From a virus (taxonomy: Duplodnaviria; Heunggongvirae; Uroviricota; Caudoviricetes), in IMG/VR virus record IMGVR_UViG_2695420687_000013, positions 1 through 7,496 of that record: a DNA stretch of 7,496 nucleotides, one strand, 5' to 3'. Of the stretch, positions 1 to 3,000 are shown piece after piece; the first letter of the stretch is position 1, and each line of letters begins with the position of its first letter. The position numbers were made by a program.

Positions 1-3000
1 TATATCGCGTTATTAATGCCTGCCCAGACTATTCACTACTTTATGCTGTCACCCTACAGCGTGGTGATGGACGTTAAAATGCTCAATTTCTTTCGCCATA
101 TGAGCACAGCAACGTTAATCAGCGTGCACTCGCCTATGAACTGGCAATGGGATTTAGCTTTAAGGTGATGTATCTCACTGCGGCCATCGCATTTGTTCTC
201 TGCGGCCTGATAGTCTGGCTCTTTCTACCATCAATACAGAAAAGCATTCCTGCCACGACCCGCCCCGTAGATATGTCCACGACCTCTCACAGCCGACGAG
301 ATACCTGGTTACTTTTCGTGGTTTGTACAATGATGTGGGGTGCTAATAATCTTTACATTATCAATATGCCGTTATTTATTATTGATGAATTACATTTCAC
401 CGACAGATTAGCTGGTGAAATGATCGGCATTGCCGCCGGGCTGGAAATTCCGGCAATGCTCATTGCGGGTTACTTTATAAAACGCATTGGCAAGCGTTTT
501 TTAATGCTGATTGCCATCGTAAGCGGTATCTGTTTTTATGCCAGTGTATTGATGGCAACGACCCCTACCGTAGAGCTGGAATTACAAATACTCAATGCAA
601 TATTCCTGGGTATTCTCTGCGGTATTGGTATGCTTTACTTTCAGGACCTGATACCCGAAAAAATTGGCTTCGCCACTACACTATATGCCAACACCTCACG
701 CGTGGGCTGGATAATAGCCGGTTCACTCGACGGTATCATGGTCGAAATCTGGAGTTATCATTCCTTGTTCTGGCTGGCGATAGGTATGCTGAGCATCGCA
801 ATGATATGTCTGCTGTTTATTAAAGACGCTTAACTGTTTAAAACTAAAACAAGATGCTCCGTCATCAACACTGACAGCGCGCCCTTCCTCATATAGATAT
901 GCATTAATAATTGCAGCCACTACAACACCATTCTCTTTTTGCGCGTTATCATGATTTCCTTTACTTCTATGGTCATGACAACTGTTGCTATTTTCAGGAT
1001 TCGCCAGAACTGGCGTAACCAGAAATGAGATTGATACAACGGAGACAACGCCAGGCCATAGTCGTCAATTTTGCTATTATGTTCGTAAACATAAACGACA
1101 AAATTGAATGCAGAGGGAAAAAATGGGTTCCACCAGAAAGGGGATGCTGAACGTTTTGATTGCCGCCGTATTATGGGGGAGTTCCGGTGTCTGCGCACAA
1201 TACATCATGGAACAAAGCCAGATGTCGTCGCAGTTTCTGACAATGACACGTCTGATATTTGCTGGCTTTATTCTGCTGACGCTCTCATTTTTTCACGGCG
1301 ATAAAGTCTTCTCGATAGTAAAAAATCATAAAGACACCATCAGCTTGCTGATTTTTTCCGTGCTTGGTGCGCTGACAGTACAACTGACCTTCTTACTAAC
1401 CATAGAAAAATCAAATGCGGCTACGGCAACGGTACTACAGTTCCTCTCGCCAACAATTATTGTGGCGTGGTTCTCGCTGGTTCGTAAATCGCGCCCAGGA
1501 ATTCTGGTATTCGCCGCGATCATGACGTCGCTTATCGGTACTTTTTTGCTGGTGACTCACGGAAATCCCACCTCACTCTCGATTTCTCCCGCAGCACTCT
1601 TCTGGGGAATCGCCTCGGCTTTTGCTGCTGCGTTCTACACCACTTACCCCTCTACGCTCATTTCTCGCTACGGTACGCTGCCCATCGTCGGCTGGAGTAT
1701 GTTGATTGGTGGTCTTATCCTGCTCCCTTTTTATGCCAGGCAAGGAACAAACTTTGTNGTTNACNNNANCNTNATNNTGTTGTCAGGGCGGCGTCGCCGT
1801 CAGACCTTGCGGAAAAGCTGACACACAAACTGAAAGAGGGCTGGCAGCCGTTTGGTAGTCCGGTGGCCATAACCCCTTATACCCTGATGCAGGCGATTAC
1901 AGCAGAAGGTGATGTGGTGGTCAGTGGTGCAACTGAGCCGGATTGGTACTACGTCATCGTACTGGCCGGGCAGTCCAATGCCATGGCTTACGGTGAAGGG
2001 CTTCCGCTGCCGGATTCATACGATGCTCCGGATCCGCGCATTAAACAGCTGGCGCGCCGCAGTACAGTGACGCCGGGCGGGACTGCCTGCAGATATAACG
2101 ATATTATTCCGGCCGACCACTGCCTGCATGATGTGCAGGATATGAGTACGCTGAATCATCCGAAGGCAGACCTGAGCAAAGGGCAGTACGGCTGTGTCGG
2201 CCAGGGTTTACATATTGCCAAAAAACTGCTCCCGTATATCCCGAATAACGCGGGGATCCTGCTGGTACCATGCTGTCGTGGTGGTTCGGCATTCACCCAG
2301 GGCGCGGAGGGGACATTCAGTGCGGACACGGGGGCCAGCCAGGATTCGGCACGCTGGGGTGTGGGTAAACCGTTATATCAGGACCTGATTGCGCGCACTA
2401 AAGCTGCATTACAGAAGAACCCGAAAAATGTGTTGCTGGCGGTGTGCTGGATGCAGGGAGAGTTTGACATGAGCGCCGCCACCCACGCACAGCAACCTGC
2501 GCTGTTTACAGCCATGCTGACACAGTTTCGTGCTGACCTCTCCGTGTTTAACGCGCAGTGCCATGGTGGCAGTGCTGCAGATGTGCCGTGGATTTGTGGT
2601 GACACGACGTATTACTGGAAAAATACATACGCTACCCAGTACGACACCGTGTACGGCGGGTATAAAAACAGGGAGAGTGAGGGCGTTTATTTTGTGCCCT
2701 TCATGACAGACGGTAACGGCGTCAATACCGCCACTAACGCGCCGGCAGAAGATCCGGATATTCCGGCATCAGGATATTACGGTGCGGCATCGAGAACGAA
2801 TGGAAACCAGGTATCATCAAACCGCCCGACACATTTCAGTTCATGGGCGCGCAGGAGCATTATTCCGGATCGTCTGGCAACCGCTATTCTGAACGCAGCC
2901 GGGCGCACCTCCGCCTTCATCAGTGGTAAGGCACCGGAAATTAAACCCTCGCCCGGCGGCAACACGCCATCGGGTCCGTCTGCAGATACGTCCGTTCGCA

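Follow-up and report, generated by a model that had tools for sequence, protein, structure and literature searches.

The yicL–prophage junction of an Escherichia albertii draft contig is very probably a product of assembly

The host–phage junction around positions 1758–1777 of the window (the whole 7,496-nucleotide stretch of DNA that was analysed) is very probably an artefact of draft assembly, made during scaffolding or gap filling, and not a structure that existed in the cell. The initial annotation had left two options for this junction: a join of two contigs made at the scaffolding or consensus stage, or a real deletion or rearrangement that left a cryptic lysis-module remnant inside yicL. 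The first gained ground from the Ns that sit at conflicts between the two flanks, from the different form that the join takes in a sister draft and from the other chimeric scraps; the second lost ground with the finding that not one base is specific to the junction.

Composition of the contig and its host

The window is identical to CDRK01000240.1, a 7,496-bp contig of the E. albertii draft GCA_000936005.1, and is thus one complete contig of a fragmented draft. It consists of four unlinked loci: a 126-nt scrap of yccM, 1.65 kb of setC'-yicL', 5.67 kb of a lambdoid late region and a 51-nt scrap of hyuA. The features are listed below by coordinates and strand.

1–126, +, interior fragment of yccM (4Fe-4S binding protein); matches E. 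coli yccM at 89.7% (5410 genomes)
127–833, +, 3' part of setC (sugar efflux MFS transporter), gene position about 481 onward; matches E. albertii NBRC 107761 at 99.4% and E. coli setC at about 81%
1108–1757, +, 5' part of yicL (DMT/EamA carboxylate/amino acid/amine transporter), codons 1–216, clean; collinear with the NBRC 107761 contig at 99.4%
1758–1777, no strand, mixed-consensus zone with 10 Ns among 10 called bases, from the three-way alignment and the sister contig
1758–3608, +, nanS-p-like SASA-family carbohydrate esterase (DUF1737-SASA-DUF6645), from prophage homologues; clean only from 1778
3901–7364, +, ordinary lambdoid lysis region, from Pfam on called genes, gene order and the names of exact-sequence matches; its genes, each from Pfam on called genes, are the next six
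3901–4107, +, class II holin
4112–4456, +, YdfR/DUF1327
4507–5040, +, lysozyme R
5314–6009, +, Ant antirepressor
6247–6705, +, Rz, with Rz1 embedded at 6458–6643
7038–7364, +, TonB_C lipoprotein
7446–7496, +, 51-nt fragment of hyuA (D-phenylhydantoinase); 96.1% match to hyuA of 5168 E. coli genomes

Pfam MFS_1 is recorded on the called setC gene (168–833), and Pfam SASA and DUF6645 on the called esterase gene (1887–3608). Homology, Pfam and gene order agree with the gene identities first proposed for the window, namely a yicL-like transporter, a nanS-p-like esterase and a lysis module.

The chromosomal part belongs to E. albertii, not to the E. coli that the initial annotation had implied as the host. 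Positions 127–1764 match the setC-yicL locus of NBRC 107761, the E. albertii type strain, at 99.4% and that of E. coli at only about 81%, and E. coli was rejected as the host on these figures. Positions 127–1757 keep the order of the selC-setC-yicL-nlpA locus of Escherichia, being collinear with it at 99.4% identity in the E. albertii type strain and at about 81% in E. coli K-12. Of that locus, the window holds an internal 1.65-kb piece alone: it lacks the first 480 nt of setC as well as the 3' third of yicL, and the piece is bordered by unrelated DNA at both ends.

The yicL-like frame, which opens at 1108/1123, matches E. albertii yicL at 99.4% up to 1757. Beyond that position each called base to 1779 is still that of yicL, after which 13 out-of-context codons (LSGRRRRQTLRKS) lead to a stop at 1819–1821; the earlier reading of a frame clean to about 1757, followed by an N zone and a basic tail, was thus accurate. 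The N-terminal part of YicL differs from type-strain YicL at 3 amino acids. When a hypothetical full-length query was composed from the N-terminal allele of the window and the C-terminus of the type strain, an exact look-up in a protein collection placed this 300-aa YicL, recorded there as a transporter of E. albertii, on 67 contigs of that species. The gene is uninterrupted in the type strain as well. A homologous-protein search with YicL', run against representatives of 90%-identity clusters, returned E. coli and other genera and no E. albertii representative.

From 1778 on, the window matches esterase genes from lambdoid prophages of E. coli at 99.4%, and the segment 1778–7445 aligns with E. 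coli prophages in one piece at about 98%. A closer relative is the prophage in the closed chromosome CP030778.2, which belongs to E. albertii 05-3106 (PMC10673567): from this prophage and from two other contigs, the segment differs at 4 of 5,668 positions (99.93%). Contamination by E. coli was rejected as the origin of the phage part, given that the same phage resides in the closed E. albertii 05-3106 genome. CP030778.2 and the two other contigs carry a complete esterase gene of 616 aa, upstream of which lie Q, a methyltransferase, TerB and, where called, DUF3927.

The ATG of the intact esterase homologue lies 20 nt before the first matching base, which corresponds to window position 1758. In the esterase frame (that of 1758 and 1863), the longest open reading frame of the window begins at the GTG at 1863, and there is no ATG, GTG or TTG between the N zone and this codon. 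Reading of the frame therefore upholds the earlier statement that the esterase has no start codon upstream of 1863, the intact ATG being equivalent to 1758.

The segment 1778–7445 is an ordinary member of the lambdoid/Stx-type late regions, which are arranged as Q, a variable module, a nanS-p esterase and S/R/Rz. It shares with them the SASA esterase, class II holin, DUF1327, lysozyme, Ant, Rz/Rz1 and TonB_C lipoprotein, it is 98–99% identical to many E. coli prophages, and its lysis-region gene order is common to many E. coli and E. albertii prophages. A look-up of Ant gave 7,103 blocks, too common to inform. The window departs from this arrangement in having yicL sequence in place of the Q/TerB/DUF3927 module and of esterase codons 1–7, and the evidence attributes this replacement to the assembly and not to the phage.

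Two more chimeric junctions, overlooked in the initial annotation, lie at 126/127 and 7445/7446. In the three-way alignment, yccM identity stops at 126 and setC identity begins at 127, a blunt join with no overlap and no Ns. In E. coli, yccM adjoins torS and setC adjoins selC, so that yccM is unlinked to setC and yicL. In related prophages, homology to the phage segment ends at 7445, where hyuA is blunt-joined; hyuA is a chromosomal gene unlinked to both yccM and setC-yicL. A search with the yccM–setC junction pattern gave no match in IMG/VR and metagenomes. Four unrelated segments, of which three break off within genes, make up this 7.5-kb contig, which shows that the CDRK01 assembly makes false joins.

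The ambiguous bases and the sister draft

The window has 10 non-ACGT bases, all of them N, at 1758, 1762, 1765–1767, 1769, 1771, 1773, 1776 and 1777, in keeping with the 20 positions of alternating N and called bases first described. The window was aligned with intact E. albertii yicL (NBRC 107761) and with the intact phage. All 14 called bases between 1756 and 1779 are those of yicL, and the called bases from 1768 onward are those of the phage. Over 1758–1777, yicL and the phage agree at 6 of 20 positions, and all six are called. They differ at the other 14, of which 10 are N and four, at the left edge (1759, 1760, 1763 and 1764), carry the yicL base. The chance that all 10 Ns would fall on mismatch positions is C(14,10)/C(20,10) = 0.0054 (hypergeometric). 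A superposition model fits 13 of 13 positions from 1765 to 1777, and across the zone the sequence grades from yicL through N to phage, left to right.

Because the Ns sit only at conflicts between yicL and the phage, and agreeing positions are called, the zone is two sequences superimposed; it represents neither a random failure of base calling nor one molecule. It is not a homology-driven overlap, since the two parents match at merely 6 of the 20 positions. IUPAC ambiguity codes of the original record may have been flattened to these Ns. A superposition model with a 1-nt gap, which with the clone's own esterase 5' end fits all positions but 1757, was set aside as unneeded.

Another contig, CCBU01000229.1 (GCA_000940615.1; 6,368 bp), comes from a second draft of the same clone: 1,598 nt of setC-yicL' and 3,882 nt of the phage segment are common to both contigs, with 0 differences. 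There, too, setC-yicL' and the phage piece lie side by side in the same order and orientation. The spacer between them differs: yicL ends at the equivalent of window position 1724 and is followed by NNN and then by 51 nt of intact phage (−31 to +20), comprising 31 nt upstream of the ATG and codons 1–7. From the last common yicL base (1724) to the first clean phage base (1778), the spacer of the window is 53 nt long and that of the sister 54 nt. In the window (1725–1777) it contains 33 nt of intact yicL continuation and the mixed zone, while in the sister it contains NNN and phage upstream sequence. These fills are mutually exclusive for one molecule. A spacer of nearly equal size but unlike content is expected of a scaffold gap whose estimated size is fixed and which reads fill from either side.

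Every base at the join, in both drafts, is explained by intact yicL or by intact phage. As in a scaffold join, the ambiguous bases coincide with conflicts between the continuations of both flanks, the join is not reproduced base for base in the other assembly of the clone, and both partners run uninterrupted in close relatives (the 05-3106 prophage, YicL on the 67 contigs and type-strain yicL).

The sister contig has foreign scraps of its own, with thiC blunt-joined at its start and lptE at its end after a single N. The end scraps thus differ between the two drafts of the clone, while the yicL'-phage pairing recurs. A real crossover at the 7-nt motif CTTTTTA, common to yicL (1727–1733) and the phage upstream region and hinted at by the sister contig, was rejected because the window continues through intact yicL beyond the motif.

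Two observations run against an artefact. The same two pieces occur with the same orientation and spacing in both drafts, though the end scraps differ, and both drafts break yicL at about one place, which is unusual for a unique gene. A random chimera should not recur, and a systematic cause is therefore expected to tie yicL' to the phage contig. This cause could be shared reads or a shared library, duplicated chimeric fragments, or real adjacency.

Explanations of the junction

The software steps behind the interleaved Ns, as we infer them, would be as follows. A scaffolding step would set a unique setC'-yicL' contig, ending at about 1724, beside a late-region contig starting at about 1778, leaving a gap of about 53 nt (1725–1777) between both. 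A gap-filling or consensus step would then write read-derived bases into this gap, whereby reads anchored in yicL would extend normal yicL rightward and reads anchored in the esterase would extend the normal phage 5' end leftward. Positions 1725–1757, reached by yicL reads alone, would come out as clean yicL. The last 20 positions would be covered by both read sets, so that agreement would be called, conflict would become N and a few sites at the left edge would go to the yicL majority. As by-products, the join would have yielded both the start-less esterase and a truncated yicL that ends in a basic tail.

The start of the phage contig is compatible with such steps. In 121 copies from IMG/VR, the DNA ahead of the esterase belongs to several unrelated families, which still differ in esterase codons 2–6 and converge just before TGTTGTCAGG. 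Because the prophage esterase variants are identical after codons 2–6, a collapsed repeat contig from a genome with two or more such prophages would begin at about 1765–1778; clean phage sequence in the window begins at 1778, within this range, and the phage contig is probably a collapsed repeat. Two of the 121 records begin 5–23 nt before TGTTGTCAGG and 11 end 43–135 nt after it, although some of these record ends may be prophage-prediction boundaries and not contig ends.

The junction resembles the scaffold joins and partly filled gaps of short-read drafts in several ways. These likewise have residual Ns at the join and flanks that are the natural continuations of each contig; they likewise show spacers of equal size with unlike content in two assemblies, and one partner that starts where the esterase 5' ends converge. 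The sister contig has joins through a single N or NNN, as do other drafts that cover similar prophage regions. In contrast to usual scaffold joins, the Ns of the window are interleaved, which is less common than a solid run of Ns, and the joins at 126/127 and 7445/7446 are blunt and without N.

Signs of site-specific integration were lacking at the junction. Between yicL and the esterase, the window has no integrase, att repeat, Q, tRNA or stx; the absence of an att site, an integrase and the usual upstream late genes (Q, tRNAs, stx) had been pointed out initially, and none is present. The junction falls midway in a late region, at the esterase start, and not at a prophage end, where an att junction would be placed; in intact copies, Q, a methyltransferase and TerB (with DUF3927 where called) lie upstream of this start. 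Within 1758–1777, yicL and the phage share no exact run longer than 2 nt that could form an att core. A comparison of the yicL locus with the phage upstream region gave chance-level matches only, with no significant similarity and no shared repeat that could provide a graph link. No IS or transposase open reading frame was found near the junction, nor was the unique, unambiguous novel junction of a deletion or an IS event.

The junction did not recur in the collections searched. A pattern of 22–23-nt flanks with a free 20-nt middle had no match among GTDB species representatives and IMG/VR, in which Ns of a target might escape the N of the pattern, and a pattern constrained by the called bases had no match in JGI metagenomes. 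Exact look-ups of the truncated products (the 228-aa SetC', the 581-aa esterase and the 237-aa YicL fusion) found none on record, recorded calls using other starts. In the literature searched, yicL was never a phage insertion site and appeared only as a flank of the selC island, and no paper connected yicL with E. albertii; neither this literature nor GTDB representatives, IMG/VR and JGI metagenomes contained a known or recurrent integration site at yicL.

We consider it unlikely that the two partners are truly adjacent, that is, that a remnant of a lambdoid late region with its lysis genes lies beside a yicL broken, for instance, by an illegitimate deletion or rearrangement, and that the gap between them was mis-sized and mis-filled. 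The true junction would then lie beyond yicL 1779 and upstream of phage −31, the anchors would be at least about 86 nt apart, and the assembler would have failed to read through. Order, orientation and spacing that are equal in two drafts with different chimeric end scraps would be accounted for in this way, as would yicL ends that fall within about 55 nt of each other, and the esterase start is a natural mosaic boundary of lambdoid phages, whose upstream modules differ. Yet both gap fills are uninterrupted parental sequences, with no junction-specific base in either draft, and a unique junction ought to assemble cleanly from the unique yicL side. True adjacency also meets the absence of an IS, att site or integrase, the normal context of the same phage in closed 05-3106, the full-length YicL allele that is common in E. 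albertii, a literature in which yicL is a selC-island flank and not an insertion site, and the other false joins that both contigs demonstrably hold. We keep a small share of the probability for real adjacency because the pairing recurs in both drafts.

Far less probable is a fusion that is real as written, yicL(...CTTAATCCTG)+TTGTCAGGGCGG, joined at 1779/1780 via a 2-nt TG microhomology. Reads from other intact prophage copies would have piled onto the fusion and produced the Ns by overhanging 20 nt into yicL. Called bases do follow yicL to 1779 and the phage from 1778, so that TG is shared, and the one-sided N gradient fits overhanging reads from paralogous prophage copies. However, such reads would need to end exactly at the esterase ATG, and at the place where the fusion requires yicL, the sister contig, in which yicL 1725–1779 is absent, carries the 31 nt of phage sequence that precede the ATG. 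The objections to true adjacency hold here likewise. It is scarcely credible, finally, that the Ns are low-quality calls at the end of a yicL read or contig, unrelated to the phage, with the contigs simply concatenated. Interspersed Ns are typical of poor read ends, and the 14 of 14 yicL matches among called bases at 1756–1779 are as this reading predicts; but random failures would strike agreeing sites too, whereas none of the 10 Ns falls on the six agreeing positions (p = 0.0054), and superposition accounts for the whole of 1765–1777. Even so read, the join would still be artefactual.

Consequences for annotation

Annotators should not treat the truncated YicL with its basic tail, the start-less NanS-p-like esterase or a "phage remnant in yicL" as biological features; entries to be avoided include a cryptic prophage, a pseudogene, a fused gene and a new integration site. 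Were the adjacency true, a transporter gene close to the selC island would harbour a cryptic lysis cassette that lacks an integrase, an att site and an IS, a modest case of prophage decay in E. albertii through illegitimate recombination. A test that needs no reads can be applied to such junctions: the ambiguous zone is aligned to intact versions of both flanks, and Ns that occur only at disagreements indicate a consensus of two molecules.

While most phage proteins of the window are too widespread to be traced, its lysozyme variant is rare and was found on 12 contigs only; a look-up of this variant yielded both CDRK01000240.1 and CCBU01000229.1. One accession of the full-length YicL, EFO4719292.1, is numerically near one of the rare lysozyme, EFO4720611.1. 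The closeness of the two accessions suggests, but does not prove, that one genome holds both an intact yicL and this phage.

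Joins at the two ends of the window

Besides the join between yicL and the esterase gene, the window carries a second chimeric junction at 1–127 and a third at 7445–7496, where the phage segment gives way to part of hyuA, a chromosomal gene. The terminal fragments of the window and of its sister contig (L220, CCBU01000229.1), a second draft of the same clone, are as follows.

Terminal fragments of the two contigs
Window 1–126: interior fragment of yccM, 126 nt
Window, final 51 nt, to 7496: fragment of hyuA
L220 1–133, contig start: fragment of thiC, 133 nt
L220 6285–6368, contig end: fragment of lptE, 83 nt, preceded by one N

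The yccM fragment is joined bluntly into the interior of setC (at approximately nt 481), with no Ns at the join and no bases common to both sides. Upstream of this join point, setC runs on normally in both the E. albertii type strain and the sister contig. At the other end, the phage segment stops at 7445, in an intergenic position 3′ of the TonB_C gene.

In the sister contig, the lptE fragment has only 83–84% identity to E. coli, and the thiC fragment matches many E. coli genomes with 100% identity. Judged from this perfect identity, the thiC fragment could have come from cross-sample carry-over; alternatively, the match could just be due to strong conservation.

Genes of the lysis cassette

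Genes of the phage segment
4507–5040: lysozyme, a rare exact variant, recorded as ‘MULTISPECIES: lysozyme [Escherichia]’
5314–6009: Ant (antirepressor, PF03374), within the cassette, between lysozyme and Rz
7038–7364: small lipoprotein with a TonB_C domain, 108 aa, 3′ of Rz/Rz1

The exact lysozyme variant was found on only ~12–14 contigs, including that of the closed E. albertii genome 05-3106; its neighboring genes are common ones. The source contig of the window was traced through this variant. The exact Ant protein is very common among prophages of E. coli, with 7,103 index blocks listing it. The TonB_C lipoprotein gene looks like a conserved moron in the position that bor occupies in lambda; in related prophages the genes that follow next encode DUF3950, HNH and terminase proteins.

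A shared motif and a shared protein cluster

The 7-nt motif CTTTTTA is common to yicL (window 1727–1733) and to the region upstream of the esterase gene (~7215–7221 of the related prophage contig L215), and the NNN of the sister contig falls exactly on it. Since the window continues through the motif as intact yicL, this sequence match is probably coincidental.

When proteins are clustered at 90%, sequences of SetC (394 aa) and of YicL (300–307 aa) fall within a single cluster of 7,710 members, the representative of which is a SetC. A fused setC-yicL gene call bridging the two proteins may be the reason.
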